From a virus, in UHGV virus genome UHGV-1616493: a stretch of DNA of 10,396 nucleotides; one strand, 5' to 3'. Below, in pieces: positions 2,608-10,387 of the stretch. Numbering within the stretch: the stretch's first letter is position 1; each line of letters begins with the position of its first letter. The notes below the pieces were generated by a model. It ran no database searches. It was not told the origin of the DNA and saw nothing but the letters and a program-made list of their open reading frames with translations. The translations under genes and the position numbers were made by a program.

Positions 2608-2621
2608 GCAATTTTTATAAT

Positions 2622-2726
2622 CCGGCGAATATGCCGGGTTGTGTTGAAAAAATACCGTCCATCGGACGGCATTCTTTTATTTGTATTCCCAACAGAAAAA
2701 GAGCCGGAGGCAGGAAAACGCCTGCC
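2622..2726. terminator. Cluster of three hairpins directly upstream of the capsid genes; the middle one is a bidirectional intrinsic terminator
   Basis: CCGGC-gaatat-GCCGG (2622-2637); CCGTCC-atc-GGACGG (2655-2669) flanked by CATTCTTTTATTTG on plus and TATTTTTTC on minus; GGCAGG-aaaacg-CCTGCC (2709-2726) followed on minus by a T-rich run. Confidence 0.45.
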
Positions 2727-2760
2727 CCGGTTGGTAGATCATCGGAGATGATGAAATTCA

Positions 2761-2792
2761 CCCGTTTACGGGTTAGCAACATGCGTTGCTAA
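2761..2792. promoter_or_regulatory. Adjacent palindromes, operator-like
   Basis: CCCG-ttta-CGGG (2761-2772) followed by TTAGCAAC-atgc-GTTGCTAA (2773-2792), perfect 8-bp arms with a 4-nt spacer, in the untranslated leader between the 713-aa gene and the capsid genes. Confidence 0.3.
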
Positions 2793-3250
2793 TAGCTTCA
2801 CGATGGTATTTTCTGATGGAGAGATTTGGAAAGCATGATCGGCGGGTCACGCTTCAGGAATGAGGGAGCACAGCAGCGGGAGACCTCATATCTTCGCTGC
2901 CGCACTCAATGCCAGTTTTCGTCTGGCAAGACGGCCTTCCGAGGATGAAAGGCTTTGGCAAATCTCCGATCCAAGGTCGGAGAAAATCTTTTCTGATACA
3001 GCCAGCGGCAATGGCCTAACCTTACCGTGAGAGGGTGCGAATATTGGCTGTATGAGAAAAGGCGCTCTGGGAAAAGCGCACTTTGATTCCTAAGGAGAAG
3101 GGAAAACATTTGGCTGTTGTAATTCACCTTGTATATTATTTTAACACGAATGATTATCATTTGCAACAACAAAAACAATAACATGGCGAATTCAACGGCC
3201 CTCTCTCGTGTGGGCCAATTTGCTGCGCCATTTTCGACGGAACGATGATT

Positions 3251-5392
3251 TTAGTCTGCAATCCCAAGGATGAGGTTATTCTGCGCGTGGTTGTTCTCCC
3301 TTATCTTGGTATCAACCAGCCCTGCGATCTTATCGTCATGGACAAACACATCCATCTGCTGATTAATGTTCGCTTGCCCGGTAACACTGACAGGAATCGG
3401 CTGTCGCAGCGTCATGCTGTCAATTGTCGGAACCGTAAACGTCGGTTGCTGGGGTGTCAGATAGTTCAGGCTAGGAACATTCAACGCTAGCGCTGGATCG
3501 TTATACGCCGTGCCTGAGCCAATATTGCTCGGTGCTGAACTATCCAGCCACGGGTAAATCTGCTTAAGCGTCTGACCGATGCTACGTGGATCAAAGCCTG
3601 TCTTTTCCTTAATCCAATCGGCAGCACCGTTTGCAGATTCATCTACCACGCTCGTATACACCGCATCCGGCAATGTCGCGCCTTTCTTAAGTTCTTCTCC
3701 GACTCGACCAGAGAAGGAGAGAATGTTGGTGGTTAGCTCACCAAGGGCAACGCCGAGGGCATCGGAAATTGGGATCAGTCCAGTCATCTTCTGACGTAGA
3801 GTTTCAGTATTGGCAGCGTACTGCCCCAGGCCTTCAACAAACGAGGCTGAGAAATGATCTGCAAGGCTGGTTTGCACTCGGTTGTACTCAGCACCTAACG
3901 CCGCCAGTTTATCGAGGTTGGCTTGCTGCGCATCAGATAGGGTCCATCCTTCAGAAGAGAGTTGATGCATACGCTGGATAAGTCCCTGCCCCTCATCATT
4001 GAACACTTCGAGGAAGACCGAACCATCATTCACAGCCTCAGCCAGGTGCCGGGTCTGGTTGTCCGTCCATTTGAAAGTTTTCTGCAACTGTTTCAGGTAA
4101 GTGATGAAGGTCGGAAAATCCAGCTTTTGCAGTTCTCCGATCACCTTCTGTGCTACCTTCTGGTTACCGTTGGTGGAGGTCAGCACATTGTTGATGATAT
4201 CTGCGAACTCGCCACCGCCGCTGAAATTCACCTGTCCAGTTTTCTTGTTACGTTTGAAAGAGCCGGTGTTTAACAATTCCCCGGCCTTTTCGGTTGTGTC
4301 CTTGTTGAGGTCAGCCAGCTTGTCAGCACTCAGTGAGTAACCAACACGGCTCATCGAGAGATCCTGAAGTGCAGCGAACTCAAGGTTGCTGATCCCGTAC
4401 TGCTGGAGTTTTTTCACATCGCGAGAGCGCTCAAGGCTTCCCTGGAGGGTCTGACCGACACGAGAAACGCCCATACTACCCACTAACGACGCACCACCAA
4501 TAACACCAGCAGCTGCAAGACCAGCTCTACCACCACGGCTTTCTGTGCGTACACGACCAGCACGAACACCTGCGGCTTTCTGCTCACGGGTCATACGCTG
4601 TTGCAGACGAGCCTGCTTGCGTAATTCGGTGGTGATACGAGCCATTTCGAAGCGGGTCTCTTCAACCGTATAGCGCTCTTCTTTCTGGGCTTTAAGTGCC
4701 TCTTTTGCTGCACTGATGGCTTTGTACCGGGTTGCAACGTCAGCGCCGTTCACGTTTGCCAGAGTCAGAGCGCTACGGCGCAAACTGTTGTAATAAGTCA
4801 CCTCGCGCTTAAGGCCTGCCTCTTTCTCACGCTGACGCTTCTCCTCCAAGGCCATCGCCTTTTTGGTGGCTGCGATGTCAGCAGCAACAGCGCCGTGACC
4901 ACGGTTCATCGCTGCATTTTGACGTGCCACCAGAGATGGATCGGAGTGAACTCCAGGCATGTTGGGATTGTAGGTCATTGCACGGGAGCGACTCGCCTGT
5001 CTCACCTTGTCAGATATCGCTGCTAGTCTGGCATTCTGCCGTGCGGCCTGTTCCTGCTGGGATAACTGACGCGCCTGTAATGAGGTCATTTTATTAGCGT
5101 GGGAGACTGCATCCCGTTCCATTTTGGCTTGTATCTGAGCTTGTTTCTGTTGCTGTTTTGACAATTGTTCAGCCTGGCGTAGCTTCGCTGTCTGGGCTTT
5201 CGCTGCGGCTAGTGCTGCTTTGCCTTCACTCTGGACGGTCCGCTTCTGGGCCTTCTCAAGCGCTTTAGCTGGTTTCTCATGAGCAGCCTTAAGCGAGATA
5301 ATCTTCTTTTTGGCTTTTTGATATGAGGCATCGTCTGTGATCCACGAGATTTCATTAACGGTGCTGGTAACAATCTTATTTGTGCCAGACAT
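3251..5392 (-). CDS. Large coiled-coil protein with a Gly-rich hydrophobic segment (713 aa); tail tape-measure-like, alternatively scaffold or ejection protein
   Basis: The N-terminal roughly 250 aa are rich in A/K/Q/E/R as in coiled coils. The central GLAAAGVIGGASLVGSMGVS segment resembles the Gly-rich hydrophobic patches of tape-measure proteins. The ORF track starts at GTG 5395, but ATG 5392 overlaps the upstream stop as TGATG (translational coupling), with GGGGG upstream. Confidence 0.45.
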   Translation of the reverse strand: MSGTNKIVTSTVNEISWITDDASYQKAKKKIISLKAAHEKPAKALEKAQKRTVQSEGKAALAAAKAQTAKLRQAEQLSKQQQKQAQIQAKMERDAVSHANKMTSLQARQLSQQEQAARQNARLAAISDKVRQASRSRAMTYNPNMPGVHSDPSLVARQNAAMNRGHGAVAADIAATKKAMALEEKRQREKEAGLKREVTYYNSLRRSALTLANVNGADVATRYKAISAAKEALKAQKEERYTVEETRFEMARITTELRKQARLQQRMTREQKAAGVRAGRVRTESRGGRAGLAAAGVIGGASLVGSMGVSRVGQTLQGSLERSRDVKKLQQYGISNLEFAALQDLSMSRVGYSLSADKLADLNKDTTEKAGELLNTGSFKRNKKTGQVNFSGGGEFADIINNVLTSTNGNQKVAQKVIGELQKLDFPTFITYLKQLQKTFKWTDNQTRHLAEAVNDGSVFLEVFNDEGQGLIQRMHQLSSEGWTLSDAQQANLDKLAALGAEYNRVQTSLADHFSASFVEGLGQYAANTETLRQKMTGLIPISDALGVALGELTTNILSFSGRVGEELKKGATLPDAVYTSVVDESANGAADWIKEKTGFDPRSIGQTLKQIYPWLDSSAPSNIGSGTAYNDPALALNVPSLNYLTPQQPTFTVPTIDSMTLRQPIPVSVTGQANINQQMDVFVHDDKIAGLVDTKIRENNHAQNNLILGIAD

Positions 5393-5820
5393 CACACCCC
5401 CTGATTGATATCGTAACCCAGACGCTCAAGCGCGGCGCGTTGTTCAGGTGTTAGCTCATCAAGACTTGCCTTCATCATGAGACTTACCGGACGCAGATTA
5501 GCGCTATAACCTTGGGCTTGGTGGCACAGAGCGATCCCTTTTTCCTTGATGGTTTTACCACTTTTTGGGGCTGGCTCGCTGGCTGTTGCAGTCGAAGCGG
5601 ACAGGTAACTCTGCACCGCCTCCGCCAATGCTTCTTCAGCGGATTTGTTCAGATCTTCCGGTTCGTCTGTTCCTGCGGTCATTGCTTCCCGGATACTGGC
5701 GCGGATTGCTTCAATGTTATTCATATTGTTATGTTTCCTGTAGAGGTCCAGGCCGTCACGAAGCCATTGGAGAACAGCTACCGCTAACGGCAGAAAGGAT
5801 AAATATTCAAATAGGGTCAA
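5392..5820 (-). CDS. Hypothetical protein (142 aa from TTG 5820; alternative ATG at 5724 gives 110 aa)
   Basis: ORF in the same reading frame as the upstream 173-aa ORF, separated from it only by the TAA at 5839-5841. No ATG start at the 5' end; an internal ATG at 5724 has AGGAAA 9 nt upstream. N-terminal hydrophobic stretch, acidic Ala-rich middle. Confidence 0.45.
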   Translation of the reverse strand: MTLFEYLSFLPLAVAVLQWLRDGLDLYRKHNNMNNIEAIRASIREAMTAGTDEPEDLNKSAEEALAEAVQSYLSASTATASEPAPKSGKTIKEKGIALCHQAQGYSANLRPVSLMMKASLDELTPEQRAALERLGYDINQGV

Positions 5821-5838: not shown

Positions 5839-6360
5839 TTAATAATGCAGTCGTGGTGATCGGCGTTGGGGCGCTGCCTGCTTGCGTGAAATAGTCTTCC
5901 GGTACTCAATGAACAACGGATCATCACTAACAGGCATTCGAGATGCCATTTCTTTTTCAGTGATTCCTTCACGCTTGAGCAGCGTTACCACAGTGAATAG
6001 AGGCAGTTGAAGGTCAGCACAGATTTTTGCCAGCATTGCGCCGGATTCGTAGTACATTCGGGCCATTCGCTTAGTAGCGTACTGACTGGTATTACTTATC
6101 TTGCGACAGCGAGGATTCCACGAGTTATCGTAAAGGCCTTTTACCAGGTCATACGGCAAGCGTAGGAGCAGCGCCGTTTTGCCTGGGGTGTAACCGTGAA
6201 CGAGCATTTTTTTAGCAGTCTCGATCAACGAGGTATCACGAGAGCGGGCCTTGTAAAAACGGGACAAATCAGGGGCGTCAGCACCGGATTTGTTTACCTC
6301 TGGTAAAGTGCTTCGCACCGTAAGGGTTTCAGCCGTCAGGCTGTTGGCAACATCACACAA
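5839..6360 (-). CDS. Hypothetical protein (173 aa), TTG start; possible DNA-binding or small-terminase-like
   Basis: TTG at 6360 preceded by GGAGG with a 5-nt spacer, 15 nt after the upstream stop. Basic protein with a helix-turn-helix-like stretch (LPLFTVVTLLKREGITEKE). Function not recognised. Confidence 0.5.
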   Translation of the reverse strand: MCDVANSLTAETLTVRSTLPEVNKSGADAPDLSRFYKARSRDTSLIETAKKMLVHGYTPGKTALLLRLPYDLVKGLYDNSWNPRCRKISNTSQYATKRMARMYYESGAMLAKICADLQLPLFTVVTLLKREGITEKEMASRMPVSDDPLFIEYRKTISRKQAAPQRRSPRLHY

Positions 6361-6374
6361 TTATTCCTCCAGTA

Positions 6375-7121
6375 TCAGAAAGGGATCGAGTCATCATAAT
6401 CAAGCGGCAGCTCATCTGCTGGGGCGTTAACCTGTTGTTCTACTGACTCCGGTGCGGGTACATGATAATTTTGAATAAACAGATTCATGCTGTCCTCATC
6501 GCTGCTGATACCATGAGAGAGACAAAACGCTTTTGCTTCTTCATCCAGTCCCCAATTGCGCCATCGCCTCAGCTTGGTGCCTAATTGTTCATCGGTATAC
6601 CTATCAGAAGCGTTCACCGCATCATCATTGGCAGGTACATCAGCATCGACAGGAATATCCACAACAGGTAGGCCGTCTGGTTTTCCAGCAACAGGCGCGG
6701 CAGGTTCCACCACGAAAGATTCCACATCACGTTTCTGCTCATTCTTACCGCTCTCCTCGGTTTCCACTTTTCTATTACTCACCTGCGTGGAATTATGATC
6801 GTCAAGAAAAACCATCAACGATGGATCGAGTTCGACCGGAGAAATTTTGTGTGTTCTCCCCTGCTCTTCCTCAAAAGTGATCATTCCCGCTTCACGAAGC
6901 TTGTTCCTGAAATTACGAACGGCTTCGGGCTTGCAGCCGCAACGTTTACCAATCATGCCAACAGACTCGTAATAAGTTCTGCCTGTTTTGTCATAGCTGT
7001 AAACCAGAGATAGCAAAATTTTCATGTTGCCATTAATGGTCAGGCCGTTGTACTCGGTAAGGTCGAGAATGCTGTATTCAAGTTTTACAAAATCCTTACT
7101 GTCCCGGTTCTGTTTGCTCAT
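6375..7121 (-). CDS. Winged-helix-like DNA-binding protein with acidic C-terminal domain (248 aa); candidate replication initiator or transcriptional activator
   Basis: ATG at 7121 with GGAG and a 6-nt spacer. The N-terminal roughly 100 aa look like an HTH/winged-helix fold (GKRCGCKPEAVRNFRNKLREAGMITFEE); the C-terminal half is acidic and ends ...DELPLDYDDSIPF. Overlaps the upstream 67-aa gene by 26 nt. Confidence 0.55.
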   Translation of the reverse strand: MSKQNRDSKDFVKLEYSILDLTEYNGLTINGNMKILLSLVYSYDKTGRTYYESVGMIGKRCGCKPEAVRNFRNKLREAGMITFEEEQGRTHKISPVELDPSLMVFLDDHNSTQVSNRKVETEESGKNEQKRDVESFVVEPAAPVAGKPDGLPVVDIPVDADVPANDDAVNASDRYTDEQLGTKLRRWRNWGLDEEAKAFCLSHGISSDEDSMNLFIQNYHVPAPESVEQQVNAPADELPLDYDDSIPF

Positions 7122-7386: not shown

Positions 7387-7833
7387 TTAGACTGCGGTTG
7401 CGGTCGGGAAGTCACCCGCACAGGTGTAACCGTAGGATTCCAGACGTTCCACACCATCAGTGGCGATCAAGAGCAAGATCACCTGTTCTGGTGTCAGGTC
7501 CAGATTCAGTTTTTCTCTATATAGCTCGCGGTAGCCCTGTAACACAGGATTCAGGATTTGCGTTAAGGAATTACCCTCAGCATATTTATTGCTCAGAGGC
7601 TTCAGCACCGTCTTAACCACTCGTGCCTGCTTCGCTTTCTTCCGCGCCTGCTTCAGGATTTGCAGGCAGACGGCGATCTGAGGAAGTCGAGCATGTACAG
7701 CGTCTGCCCCGCCGTTTCTACTAATGAAGGCCCACAAAGCTGATTTGGTGTATTTGCCGTTCAGGATGAGATCAGCGATCTGCTCGCCTGTCATAGTGGT
7801 CAGGTCGAGACGTTGGGATTTTGGTTTATTCAT
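7387..7833 (-). CDS. Hypothetical protein (148 aa), first gene of the minus-strand array
   Basis: ATG at 7833 with GGAG and a 6-nt spacer; preceded by a long AT-rich untranslated region. Predicted helical and basic; no family recognised. Confidence 0.55.
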   Translation of the reverse strand: MNKPKSQRLDLTTMTGEQIADLILNGKYTKSALWAFISRNGGADAVHARLPQIAVCLQILKQARKKAKQARVVKTVLKPLSNKYAEGNSLTQILNPVLQGYRELYREKLNLDLTPEQVILLLIATDGVERLESYGYTCAGDFPTATAV

Positions 7834-8049
7834 TGGGTTCTCCGTTCTGTTAAAAGAATTATTCGCGGAGGTTCTATTTGTAACCCATTTTGTATTGCCG
7901 TGAGGTTGACAAGGAATGTCGTGATGACGGCAGAATTATTCGAGGATTCGTAGGTAAATCATTACCCTACTAAAATCTATTGTATCAGATTTGTTTGTAA
8001 ATAGCAATCATTATCATGTAGCATTTTATAATGCATAATAATCACCATA

Positions 8050-8078
8050 ACATTACAAGTTTAAAAAATCTTTGTCAA
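8050..8078 (-). promoter_or_regulatory. Candidate sigma70 promoter driving the minus-strand array
   Basis: On the minus strand: TTGACA (8078-8073), 17-bp A/T-rich spacer, TAATGT (8055-8050). It lies in an AT-rich zone (about 7960-8080) with several imperfect palindromes, roughly 210 nt upstream of the first gene. Confidence 0.35.
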
Positions 8079-8286
8079 TAGTGCTAGATCGTTCTGTGAC
8101 GCGTTCTGCGGGGACTCGTCGTTATAGCAGTACCATCGTGTTACCCACACCATTTAAACGCCGTAGAGAGGCGCTGAGGAAGTCAGTTAGACAACCCGCG
8201 CCGCCCCGGAGTGAACCGGACAGATGCAAAGCAGTCCTCTCCGCCGTGCTCCGATCCACATATGGCGAACAAGTTCGCAGCTTCCA

Positions 8287-8470
8287 CACAGAGTGAGAGC
8301 GTAGCTCTCTGGCGTAGCCTGTCGGGTTACCCGAGTCACAGAGCGTAGCGATGTGTTAACGAGGGTTAGAAGGTCACGAGATGGCGCGGCTGTTTCACGT
8401 CAGCAAAGGTGAGCTTCTTACCACAAACATATCTGAAGTGGCTGACCAGCCATTGCAGAGCGGAGCGATG
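8287..8470. repeat. Dispersed GAGCGTAGC-type motif copies in a GC-rich non-coding block
   Basis: CAGAGCGTAGCGATG (8339-8353) and CAGAGCGGAGCGATG (8456-8470) match 14/15. GAGAGC-gta-GCTCTC forms a perfect hairpin at 8295-8309, and GGCGTAGC occurs at 8311-8318. Confidence 0.45.
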
Positions 8471-8581
8471 CAGAAGCATCACTATTAAAACTAACAGAAT
8501 GACCAACCGTCATTCCGTGCTCTCGACCTGGAGGTACTTTTCTTATCAGTTCTTTTATGGAGATTGTTATTTATTATTATT

Positions 8582-8672
8582 GTGCTCGAAAATCGACTAC
8601 CCCCTACTCGAAAATCGTGCAGGTAGGTGCTCGAAAATCGAGGGGGTGGGTACACGAAAATCGTGCAGGTAT
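8582..8672. repeat. Iteron-like array: four copies of CTCGAAAATCG phased at 22-23 bp, next to an AT-rich tract
   Basis: Copies at 8585-8595, 8607-8617, 8630-8640 and 8653-8663 (the last is CACGAAAATCG). Alternate units carry TCGTGCAGGTA (8615-8625, 8661-8671); the others carry inverted ACCCCCT (8599-8605) and AGGGGGT (8641-8647). AT-rich tract at 8541-8583. Confidence 0.6.
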
Positions 8673-9964
8673 CACCGGGTGAGAATTTTCCAAGTCATCC
8701 AAGCGACCAACGCACCGATGAAAACTTCTGGTTTGATATGTCCGCGTCATGCTTCAATGGCACAATCGACGGCAACACCTGAGGCGGTCCAGGCACCTGA
8801 TCCGCTCCGAGAATTGATCATCTCCCTCCCCCGCTTTCATCTGAAAATACCGACCATTCTCCGCGCTGGCTGAAGATTGGCAACCCTATACTAGTTTTCT
8901 GTGAAAATTTGGTGGATGATCTTTATCATTGGCTATCCTGCGAACAAAGTAGATTAAATACACCTCAAATAGCCTATAATCCGTAGTTAATCATGCTAAA
9001 GTGGTCACTAAACGTACAAATCACAAGTTTGTACCTATGGGCGTTATGGTGTGGTGCATGCAGCGAAGCCAGTAATGGCGCGGCCTAGGCGAATCCGCCA
9101 ATTGAATGGGTGCTAAACACAACCCACTTTCTGAACCATCTTTTTACAAAAAATAAAAAAGACACATTAAAACTAAAACAGATGTCCTCTGGTGGTTCCT
9201 GTATCGCGCTGTGGGATGTCGTGGATTATCGGTACGTCAGTTTACATCTGGGGGGATAACGCACTGTAGCGCTTCTGGTGGAGCGTAGAAGGGATTGGTG
9301 GGTTGGCTGTTTACATTGTTTTGGGAAATGGTACGAAACAGTGGCGGTCAGGCTCGTGAATATCACCAGGTGATGGCAGACCTTCAGCCCGTTGTGGTAA
9401 CGTCGGTGTAGTGGCTTTGTGTCTGCTGGTAAACAGAAAAAAGTGCTTTTATGGCGTTTGACACACTGGCAGCCTCAAAGGTCTGAAACCTGAAATTGTG
9501 TGGTGACCAGGCAAACTCATCCAAAATCCTTGAACAAGAGAACTCACCTCGAATCCTCCTGAATGCTTTCCTTCTGTTGGTGAAATCGCTGTTGTGTACC
9601 CAGCTTCGCGTCAACGTTCCGAAAAGTAATACCTGACCATTCCAGTCAAGTACTTATAAGAACCATTATGTTAAATAGACCAGAAAACGAACAGTAGAAT
9701 GCCCTATTGCGGCAAGTTTTCCCTGCTGTGATGCTCTACGGGATGAAGTGGTGAAATACGTTACTGGGCCTGTCGGCTCTGCGATATTTCAGCAAGAAGA
9801 TAAGAAATTATTGAGGGATCGTCTGTCACGTCAGGCACCTGGCCCAGAGAGCCGTAAGATATTTTCAGCAAGAGCATGTAAGCTGGATCGTCAAATAGCA
9901 GGGACATCCATGAGGTGGGGTAGATGAGTTGCCGGGAATTTTACCCGGCAGACCGTATGACAGA

Positions 9965-10387
9965 TTAGTTAAAGGTGCAGTTTCCGCCAGACGGTGCACC
10001 GATGAAAAACTGCATCTTTTCGCAAGTCACGGTGATCTTCTGGCCCTTTTCCAATTTCGACGCTTTCGCCTTTTCTGAATCAGACATACTCAGACTGACT
10101 GGCATGAAGCGATTACCGCTTTCAAGTTTAAGAACTACATCATCCGTGAAATTTTTTGTTATGTCCTGTACAGTTCCGGTTACTTCCACCTTACGACCAC
10201 CAATTTTGTCATCGGCTGCAACCTCGTTAGCTTTATAAAGTTCAGCCAGAGCTAGTGCTTTTGTACGGTAAATTGCATCATCAGAAGCTGGCACTTTGGG
10301 TTTACTATCGGCAACCTGCGATTGTTCCGGATTAGTCATACTAGGGAAGGTGCGAACAAGTTCCTGATATGAGATCATCATATTCAT
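9965..10387 (-). CDS. OB-fold (tRNA_anti-like type) domain protein; N-terminus may lie beyond the window edge
   Basis: The motif pattern ...LYKANEVAADDKIGGRKVEVTGTVQDI...KLEKGQKITVTCEK... matches my memory of the tRNA_anti-like OB-fold family. The frame stays open from the ATG at 10387 to the window edge at 10396, so the real start may be upstream. Confidence 0.5.
   Translation of the reverse strand: MNMMISYQELVRTFPSMTNPEQSQVADSKPKVPASDDAIYRTKALALAELYKANEVAADDKIGGRKVEVTGTVQDITKNFTDDVVLKLESGNRFMPVSLSMSDSEKAKASKLEKGQKITVTCEKMQFFIGAPSGGNCTFN

Follow-up and report, generated by a model that had tools for sequence, protein, structure and literature searches.

A gene-free 2.1-kb interval in a capsid-encoding phage satellite as a probable replication and control region with elements in common with Vequintavirinae phages

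What occupies about 2.1 kb without genes in a mobile element that is otherwise dense with them? The question is raised by the UHGV virus genome UHGV-1616493, a stretch of 10,396 nucleotides (the window, below), at its positions 7834-9964. We consider it probable that this interval is the cis-acting control and replication region of a phage satellite and that it consists of a row of DNA modules. The likely helpers of the satellite are Vequintavirinae (rV5-like) myophages.

The gene-free interval, 2131 nt, was 100% identical to the corresponding part of the chromosomes of Escherichia coli TC24 and AREA_C483. In TC24, the stretch lies inside an island of about 13.3 kb, whose insertion site is the thiamine pyrophosphate (TPP) riboswitch upstream of thiM. 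A copy of the riboswitch stands at each island end (Rfam 73.6 bits; 6177-6273 and 19546-19642 in locus L001, and 10-106 on the minus strand of the window). Relatives are integrated elsewhere (tRNA-Thr, tRNA-Gly, ygeQ region), with different integrases. The island encodes a tyrosine integrase, a lambda-E-like major capsid protein (MCP), a gpD-like decoration protein and several small open reading frames (ORFs), together with a 714-amino-acid coiled-coil protein that matches a tape-measure PHROG and a winged-helix replication initiator (Rep). Neither the annotation of the island nor protein-family scans found a portal, a terminase or a tail set. This gene content, with integrase, MCP and decoration protein and without portal, terminase and tail set, is that of a phage satellite. 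As literature searches found no description of this family, the element is apparently an undescribed integrative, capsid-encoding phage satellite. Related loci, 21 in all, came from E. coli genomes (five types), other Enterobacterales genomes (12) and IMG/VR (five), and comparisons within the family covered 22 loci.

The sequence-only reading of this DNA had reported about 2.1 kb without a credible ORF. The RefSeq/PGAP annotation agreed, being empty over exactly 7834-9964, between a 148-amino-acid gene whose start codon ends at 7833 and a 250-amino-acid gene whose stop lies at 9965. The three ORFs which that reading had named and set aside were in the program-made list as described: 8072-8296 (plus strand, TTG start), 8409-8873 (plus strand, GTG start, spanning the repeats) and 9384-9614 (minus strand, TTG start). 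Variable sites showed strong three-base periodicity in the flanking genes (MCP, p = 3.5e-55; 714-amino-acid gene, p = 5e-98; 148-amino-acid gene, p = 1e-25). Across the relatives, no codon periodicity was seen in 7834-8080, in the modules M1 and M2 described below, or in ORF 9384-9614 (p = 0.2-0.9); the last of these is open only in some relatives and was rejected as a gene. Weak periodicity was found over 8700-8880 (p = 0.004), where a small ORF lies at 8718-8873, but this segment was judged non-coding because relatives show frame-breaking changes in it (one deletion of 14 nt, another that is large, and an insertion of a single nucleotide). Of ten translated ORFs of the region, none matched Pfam or PHROG at E <= 0.1 except for one hit at chance level, and a tblastn search of the window with the proteins that relatives encode at the equivalent place found no trace of them. 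From the missing periodicity, the indels, and the empty Pfam/PHROG and tblastn searches, we concluded that the interval is truly non-coding and not a mosaic of pseudogenes; the pseudogene fragments that a translated search might have turned up, and that would have spoken against the earlier reading, were not found. In relatives, about 1.9-2.1 kb separates the same anchor gene from the next credible gene, sometimes interrupted by one ORF of 119-123 amino acids. Judged from these sequences, a long interval free of ORFs is characteristic of the satellite family at this place.

Compared with its relatives, the interval is a series of colinear modules that are kept or swapped independently. For two adjacent modules we predict an iteron-type replication origin at 8531-8671, a well-supported call that is as strong as comparative evidence allows.

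8531-8581, no strand assigned: AT-rich stretch, a putative DNA unwinding element as read from the sequence.
8582-8671, plus strand: four direct iterons with the core CTCGAAAATCG, putative Rep binding sites (repeat families D1 and D2; spacing 22, 23 and 23 bp).

All matches of the window to the core CTCGAAAATCG, four in number, lie here; none of 200 shuffled sequences had as many. At the position of the AT-rich stretch, between M1 and the iterons, many relatives and phages carry AT-rich repeats that contain GATCT and are similar to the oriC 13-mer, the consensus of which is GATCTnTTnTTTT. Rep (248 amino acids, window 6375-7121) is encoded about 1.5 kb from the origin, across the operon promoter. 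It carries HTH_36 or DUF6945, matches O-like and replication-initiation families of PHROG, and has a winged-helix domain homologous to the phage Reps of 92-98 amino acids that are encoded beside phage iterons. Among the 22 loci, we distinguished at least five iteron types, each paired with one type of Rep N-terminus. For example, CTCGAAAATCG goes with MSKQNRDSKDF, CATGTACAAACTTTGC with KTEKY..HIVRQDTGEE, CATTACCGATGA with RASQNKPELW, and TTCAGTGG with KTDTYDVVYS. That the iteron sequence tracks the Rep type across relatives is what points to 8531-8671 as the origin.

Next to the AT-rich stretch lies M1 (8085-8530), which is made up of the following parts.

8085-8190, no strand assigned: M1-X, homologous to the element between gp099 and gp100 of Salmonella phage PVP-SE1 (76272-76378).
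8191-8530, no strand assigned: M1-Y together with hairpins specific to the satellites; homology to the flank of the origin-like region beside the Rep gene of Vequintavirinae phages covers 8191-8294 and 8431-8500.
8295-8309, 8311-8319, 8322-8334, 8364-8422 (long, with internal loops), 8437-8454, 8464-8483 and 8494-8518: hairpins of M1.

The link to phages appeared in a blastn search of the whole phage collection as a weak match between window 8257-8290 and an intergenic region of Klebsiella phage BIS47 (25/26 nt; E = 2). Like the satellite, and with order and orientation unchanged, the BIS47 region has blocks corresponding to about 8197-8215, 8265-8290 and 8433-8496, then GATCT repeats, and then repeats similar to the iterons found in satellites L010 and L004. 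It adjoins the gene for a 92-amino-acid HTH_36 protein, a "replication initiation protein" in RefSeq. An origin-like region of this type was conserved in 60 Vequintavirinae records, the phage order being flank, GATCT repeats, iterons and Rep gene. An nhmmer profile of 22 satellite M1 sequences matched PVP-SE1 at two places, 131536-131616 (E = 2e-5) and 76272-76378 (E = 4e-8), the second of which lies about 400 bp from another cluster of GATCT and direct repeats that adjoins gp098, a small Rep paralogue. Satellites L009 and L011 were 94.7% identical to PVP-SE1 over 75 nt (E = 1e-27), and the AT-rich repeats and iterons of L018 were common to phage GAP31 (79% over 162 nt, E = 9e-30). The two profile matches and these closer relatives identify M1 as a composite of two origin-associated phage blocks, X and Y, with extra hairpins inserted. 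A second origin-like locus of PVP-SE1 lies at 75600-76380 (L036 25600-26380). There, gp098 and two 24-bp repeats are followed by GATCT repeats, three copies of GGGTCAGTT, a promoter, gp099 and the M1-X-like hairpin.

Protein comparisons also led to this group of phages. The MCP was about 24% identical to the nearest phage MCPs, those of Vequintavirinae and phiPsa374-like myophages, and the order of decoration gene and then MCP gene is common to both. A protein of 110 amino acids (window 5392-5724, minus strand) was 72% identical in residues 57-95 (39 amino acids, E = 1e-15) to the N-terminus of PVP-SE1 gp072, whose gene occupies the scaffold position; it is probably a scaffold mimic for redirection of, or interference with, the capsid. 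The N-terminal 260 residues of the 714-amino-acid protein (window 3251-5395, minus strand) matched tape-measure PHROGs and the tape-measure protein (TMP) of PVP-SE1, gp056 (28%, E = 1e-6). A partial tape-measure homologue is an odd possession for a satellite without tail genes.

On the other side of M1, the interval has a promoter and a leader that face away from the origin.

8050-8078, minus strand: P_left, a sigma-70-type promoter with -35 TTGACA (8078-8073), a 17-nt spacer and -10 TAATGT (8055-8050).
7834-8049, minus strand: predicted 5' leader, about 210 nt, of the leftward operon, its extent following from the position of the promoter.

The plus-strand motif TCTTTGTCAAT was the best-conserved element of the region. 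It was present in 20 enterobacterial relatives, all with a -10-like hexamer about 17 nt from the -35, and absent at the equivalent position in the two most divergent loci (L017 and L023). P_left was missed by an automatic scan because its -10 matches the consensus at just 3 of 6 positions. It is nevertheless the obvious candidate for the main promoter of the leftward operon, which comprises the 148-amino-acid gene, Rep, the scaffold mimic, the TMP-like gene and the capsid genes. A reading of TTTGTCAAT as the -35 of a rightward promoter, for an M1 RNA running toward the origin, was rejected, because the minus strand shows TTGACA there without a mismatch and, 17 nt on, a conserved -10. The leader block was conserved in 13 close relatives. 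It contains two 15-nt direct repeats, AGAATTATTCG(C/A)GGA, at 7855-7869 and 7932-7946 (repeat family D5), which are possible operator sites.

The right part of the interval holds a candidate site for the host XerC and XerD recombinases.

9649-9676, plus strand: Xer core, AGTACTTATAA-GAACCA-TTATGTTAAAT (XerC arm, 6-bp centre and XerD arm).
9386-9648, no strand assigned: M3c, about 260 bp on the XerC-arm side, found only in the loci with a Xer core (7/7).

The XerD arm agrees at 11 of 11 positions with that of E. coli dif, GGTGCGCATAATGTATATTATGTTAAAT (PMC2731167). A degenerate 27-nt Xer pattern was unique in the window and matched in 0 of 200 shuffles. Seven loci had the core, and these are precisely the loci without a small recombinase of their own; in the others, the same place is occupied either by a serine recombinase or by a tyrosine recombinase of 184-186 amino acids whose core site is an 11-bp inverted repeat. 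The natural function of the predicted site would be to resolve multimers of the replicating circle. M3c was less structured than its shuffles (z = +2.3) and had no codon periodicity. Its lack of structure fits double-stranded accessory DNA, and we infer that M3c is a candidate accessory-sequence region.

PVP-SE1 has one canonical Xer site (117432-117459), GGTGCGTATAA-CGTGTA-TTATGTTAAAT, in a gene-free gap of 2.2 kb, with 18/18 nt (XerD arm and flank) in common with the window. In addition, this gap (116552-118793; L037 16552-18793) has a number of sigma-70 promoters that fit the consensus, CCT(G/A)AAG(T/A)G six times on the same strand inside 400 bp, and a block of 170 bp that satellites L012, L016, L020 and L023 also carry. 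The sequences CTCTGAGA and CTCTGTAA were considered as a phage promoter and dropped, being confined to one phage locus. In the window, a conserved 8-bp hairpin (9628-9654), followed by UUACUUUUC on the minus strand, overlaps the XerC arm. It has G.U pairing on the minus strand only and is a possible weak terminator for leftward transcription.

Put together, these elements suggest the following working scheme. A strong leftward promoter (8050-8078) and its leader of about 210 nt would drive the operon for Rep, the scaffold mimic, the tape-measure-like protein and the capsid genes. Rep would bind the iterons at 8582-8671, and the AT-rich stretch at 8531-8581 would melt. M1, about 450 bp derived from two blocks that flank origin-like loci of phages, would engage replication proteins of the host or the helper at the DNA level. 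Each satellite would thus open its origin by its own pair of Rep and iterons and have the origin flank in common with the helper. Finally, the Xer core and about 260 bp upstream of it would resolve multimers via the host XerCD, a task for which relatives would use their own small tyrosine or serine recombinase.

The sequence-only reading had proposed cis-acting functions for the interval: an origin, packaging or partition sites, or an attachment region. Its guess of an origin gained comparative support from the iterons, the AT-rich stretch and the co-variation of iteron type with Rep type. An operon promoter and a recombination site came to light besides, the latter as a Xer core and not as an attachment site; no packaging or partition site was identified. 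The lack of a coding signal, the borders and conservation of the modules, the co-variation of iterons and Rep, the phage homologies, and the architecture and distribution of the Xer site were computed directly. The interval is thus largely explained by ordinary cis-elements: a promoter with its leader, an iteron origin and a Xer site. What is apparently not ordinary is that an origin flank and a Xer site are common to this satellite and to non-coding DNA of a virulent rV5-like phage, that the family is undescribed, and that one further module, M3, is universal in it.

Several points weigh against reading the interval as a replication and control region. The functions assigned to the modules, and the existence and direction of the transcripts, are deduced from sequence. 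Matched directly at the nucleotide level, the window itself and a phage agree only over a short run (25/26 nt, E = 2), so that the case for homology is carried by the family profile and by closer relatives, and the phage regions used as reference are themselves annotated or predicted origins only. The AT-rich stretch of the window lacks the GATC or GATCT repeats seen in relatives. DnaA boxes (TTWTNCACA, at most one mismatch) numbered 16 in the window with 19.5 expected, and M1 had one box with one mismatch; such boxes are common in iteron origins and not obligatory. The hairpins of M1, with their compensatory changes, would suit an RNA equally well. The XerC arm has diverged, agreeing with E. 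coli dif at 7 of 11 positions (9 of 11 with the arm AGTACGCATAA of Sodalis dif); this arm is known to vary among plasmid Xer sites. Sites for ArgR, ArcA and PepA were not identified in M3c, where ARG and ArcA boxes were looked for by eye and without a formal scan. Finally, M2 and M3, together about 500 bp, fall outside the account and leave it incomplete. These modules, and the spacer that precedes them, lie between the iterons and M3c.

8672-8879, no strand assigned: post-iteron spacer, common to six relatives, with frame-breaking indels in the alignment.
8880-9035, no strand assigned: M2, an AT-rich module present in 10/19 relatives, with a hairpin at 9014-9034 and a CTAAAGTG motif at 8996.
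9036-9385, plus strand: M3, a G/T-rich module made up of M3a (9036-9135), an A-rich tract (9136-9182) and M3b (9183-9385).

The spacer starts within the palindrome TCACC-G-GGTGA (8669-8679), and a similar one, ATCACC-A-GGTGAT, lies at 9362-9374. The two are about 690 bp apart and bracket the spacer, M2 and M3; the second is poorly conserved in relatives. Their half-site recalls the operator half-sites of lambda (TATCACC). M2 was absent from all five relatives with the ORF of 119-123 amino acids (L003, L005, L008, L014 and L016). This ORF (MEIVQGKDSFNEM...; PHROG 2266) lies between the iterons and M3 in these loci, at 10302-10673 in L003 and at 9486-9845 in L005.

M3 was present in 22/22 satellites and absent from PVP-SE1. 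Its near-invariant core at about 9255-9285 reads AACGCC..GGGCTTCTGGTG(A/G)AGC. A covariance model of M3 built from 20 loci found the two held-out satellites, the most divergent ones, at E of about 1e-10, and had no match in the complete PVP-SE1 genome. In these held-out satellites, a block of about 30 nt in M3b with the palindromes GCCGCTAAGGGC and GCTTCTGGTGAAGC was nearly unchanged, and this pair of palindromes looks like a protein-binding site. M3 could be a protein-binding switch, a packaging signal or an RNA alike. Three other candidates were rejected. The TCTGGTG(G/A) sequences of M3 are not Chi sites, as they differ from GCTGGTGG and their final G is not conserved; GTTGTGGTAAC, as read from the sequence, does not match a Tus/ter site; and a CsrA sponge in M3b was not borne out, as GGA occurs about 6-7 times by eye, not clearly above the 4.5 or so expected from composition.

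Less likely than not, in our estimate, is a wider proposal, that the satellite gathered cis-elements of its helper, that its replication is triggered by the helper, and that M3 senses or counteracts the helper, all jointly. Under this origin mimicry, the hub would contain copies of helper elements, namely two origin-flank blocks, AT-rich origin repeats and a Xer site. Rep and the iterons would fire the origin, M1 would recruit the helicase-primase of the helper or be activated by helper transcription, and replication of the satellite would be confined to cells infected by a virulent rV5-like phage. M3 would then be a new satellite-specific RNA or protein-binding switch.

A second explanation, possible at rather low probability in our estimate, is that M1, M3 (9036-9385) or both are genes for new structured noncoding RNAs (ncRNAs), acting as a replication primer or activator or as a regulator of genes of the satellite or the helper; the length of the region would then be due to its coding for RNA and not for protein. 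The sequence-only reading had suggested a structured ncRNA in the GC-rich block 8100-8530. The block did prove to be rich in hairpins and conserved, and the conserved hairpin and palindrome structure in M1 is real. M1 folded far beyond its shuffles (z = -3.0 on the plus strand and -2.3 on the minus strand; sub-blocks, z from -2.7 to -4.5). Over 8355-8525, 91.7% of cells were paired, compared with 34-44% in slid controls, and 10 pairs had changed on both sides, compared with 2-6. Hairpins of differing length stand at fixed M1 positions among the relatives. The long hairpin at 8364-8422 has G.U pairs on the plus strand only. M1-X in the window was not unusually stable by itself (z = 0.2), but its PVP-SE1 counterpart forms one long hairpin that is very stable on the transcribed strand (-48 kcal/mol, z = -5.4).

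The ncRNA as stated was not supported. Rfam 15 had no match in 7700-10100 at E <= 10, nor in six relatives or the non-coding gap of PVP-SE1, so that the covariance-model scan proposed with the earlier reading returned nothing. No conserved promoter or terminator that would bracket M1 or M3 was found by the automatic scan and in alignments, and the conserved TTGACA beside M1 faces away from it. Wobbles in the M1 hairpins had no strand preference (26 G.T and 33 A.C). The hairpin at 8364-8422 prefers the plus strand, but the terminal hairpin and the base stem, in which the 5' arm of M1-X (8090-8103) is the inverted repeat of 8332-8345 (pair I4), prefer the minus strand. In the phage, the homologues of X and Y are transcribed in opposite senses. 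Because these strand signals are mixed, we preferred for M1 a role at the DNA level, with cruciforms, or single-stranded hairpins by the melting region, as parts of the origin; this would fit better than one RNA.

For M3, the case for an RNA was made by M3b, where 88.7% of cells were paired, compared with 44-54% in slid controls. Many one-sided changes there turned G-C into G.U on the plus strand, and the minus strand folded far worse. The genes flanking the M3 side in relatives are all on the plus strand, so M3 is probably transcribed in them. The structures tested in M1 and M3b beat shuffles (0/500) as well as slid controls, but they were derived from the same alignments, so the pair counts are inflated. 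M3b was no more stable than its shuffles (z = +0.67; M3a, +0.5), and RNAalifold at default settings found little in M1 and M3b, keeping five pairs in the latter. Long-range helices of M3b were broken in the two out-of-sample satellites, where the conserved part was primary sequence. A structured plus-strand RNA in M3b, obtained with the RIBOSUM option of alifold, was downgraded on these three counts: the z score, the default fold and the held-out sequences. The comparative check of the earlier reading therefore came out divided: the M1 hairpins keep their pairing through compensatory changes, and a global fold was not supported out of sample.

It is unlikely that M3 is a packaging signal (pac or cos) recognised by the terminase of the helper. 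The element has capsid genes and no recognisable terminase, so its DNA must carry, at some place, a packaging site compatible with the helper. All the satellites have M3, regardless of their type of Rep and integrase, and the A-tract of M3, flanked by conserved blocks and short palindromes, is like some pac sites. Yet a site that the helper recognises should resemble the helper's own, and M3-like sequence was absent both from the complete PVP-SE1 genome (nhmmer and covariance model) and from phage records (blastn). The true helper may differ from PVP-SE1, and we know of no Vequintavirinae packaging site with which M3 could be compared. No similarity to phage cos or pac sites was found; the only nucleotide homologies to phages were the origin flanks and the Xer site.

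We regard as very unlikely a primer RNA like RNA II of ColE1 or the R-loops of T4, starting about 450 nt upstream and running through M1 into the AT-rich stretch. A structured block of about 450 nt does abut the AT-rich stretch and the iterons, and the homologous phage flank lies inside an early operon and is thus transcribed through the origin-like region. However, no conserved rightward promoter stands at the left end of M1, where the hexamer 8073-8078 is the -35 of the opposite strand; in the phages, the region is transcribed the opposite way with respect to the flank; and a dedicated Rep with iterons makes initiation by RNA alone unnecessary.

That the interval is made up of decayed genes, its sequence being a patchwork of pseudogene remains after gene loss, can be dismissed as highly improbable: the equivalent interval of relatives does hold the ORF of 119-123 amino acids, small recombinase genes or invertase genes, so gene content at this place is fluid, but neither tblastn with the relatives' proteins nor Pfam and PHROG gave a signal in the window, residual codon periodicity was absent, and the modules are kept across genera as non-coding sequence with non-triplet indels.

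The replication and control region ends in a segment that adjoins the next gene.

9677-9964, no strand assigned: tail region, common only to L010, L015 and an Enterobacter contig.
9965-10387 of the window and beyond (L001 16132-16884): convergent gene of 250 amino acids with a tRNA_anti-like OB fold (Pfam, 7e-16) and a match to a superinfection-exclusion (Sie-like) PHROG.

In the tail region, TTTCAGCAAGA is repeated directly at 9787 and 9863, and GCCGGG-N7-CCCGGC (9931-9949), immediately beyond the stop of the 250-amino-acid gene, is a hairpin. The region is probably the 3' flank of this Sie-like gene, which is itself probably defence or exclusion cargo. Positions 9660-9789 of the window (L006 11480-11609) matched, at 84% identity, sequence without annotation in a 'plasmid' record of Enterobacter asburiae (16.5 kb). 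This record otherwise has P2-like tail genes and ABC transporter genes and is possibly another context of a Xer site or a misassembled contig.

The window has a second ORF-free gap, of about 640 bp (2608-3250), between the decoration-like gene and the 714-amino-acid gene. It contains, especially in 2712-2800, four short perfect hairpins: GCAGG..CCTGC, ATCATC..GATGAT, ACCCG-TTTA-CGGGT and TAGCAAC..GTTGCTA. Triple-hairpin cassettes much like 2712-2800 were seen in PVP-SE1 (117065-117125), in the BIS47 origin flank, in an insertion in M3b of L021 and L022, and in window 8295-8334.

Satellites of virulent phages are few, and how their replication is coupled to the helper is an open question. Here, sequence-level evidence indicates that capsid-encoding enterobacterial satellites and Vequintavirinae have in common origin-flank DNA, origin repeats, the DNA-binding domain of Rep and a Xer site. 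Vequintavirinae phages are widely used in therapy cocktails. The analysis offers testable origins for the satellite and for the phages, whose origins appear to be unmapped; it predicts a helper group for the satellite family, of which further members might be found with the candidate pattern AACGCCGCTAMGGGCTTCTGGTG; and it defines M1 and M3 as conserved non-coding modules. Origin mimicry, if true, would add a new means by which satellites hijack lytic phages.

Among known systems, the Xer core resembles dif, cer of ColE1 and psi of pSC101 in its 11-6-11 architecture and in a XerD arm identical to that of dif. As in cer and psi, whose accessory sequences lie on the XerC side, about 260 bp of linked sequence stands on that side. 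The centre of psi is GATCCA, one base off the GAACCA of the window. The site differs in its XerC arm (7/11 with dif) and in its unusual context, a phage satellite with a counterpart in the genome of a virulent phage. ColE1 RNA II and the T4 origins ori(uvsY) and ori(34) likewise place a structured or transcribed block directly beside a DNA unwinding element, but the satellite has no promoter in the right orientation and has a protein initiator. The CI RNA of P4 and SviR of the satellite PLE show that satellites use ncRNAs, sometimes from leader regions; neither similarity in sequence nor an Rfam match was found between them and the satellite region, and no target for base pairing was identified.

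The putative origin is closest in plan to lambda ori with its O protein, P1 oriR, F ori2 and pSC101 (RepA/RepE), in which a winged-helix initiator has direct sites at helical-turn spacing beside an AT-rich stretch and the specificity of the iterons changes with the initiator. In lambda, a palindrome lies beside the AT-rich stretch of the origin. The predicted satellite origin differs in lying outside the rep gene, in showing no enrichment of DnaA boxes and in its hairpin-rich flank of 450 bp common to helper-type phages.

For PLE satellites of Vibrio cholerae, Barth and colleagues reportedly described in 2020 RepA and iterons in a large intergenic region. The two systems have no relationship in sequence or proteins, PLE encodes no capsid protein, and we know of no homology between its origin flank and origin-like regions of its helper. 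They are alike in that each is a satellite of a virulent myophage, in our case by prediction, with a long intergenic region and an iteron origin served by its own initiator; the other parts of the replisome come from the helper in PLE, and may do so here.

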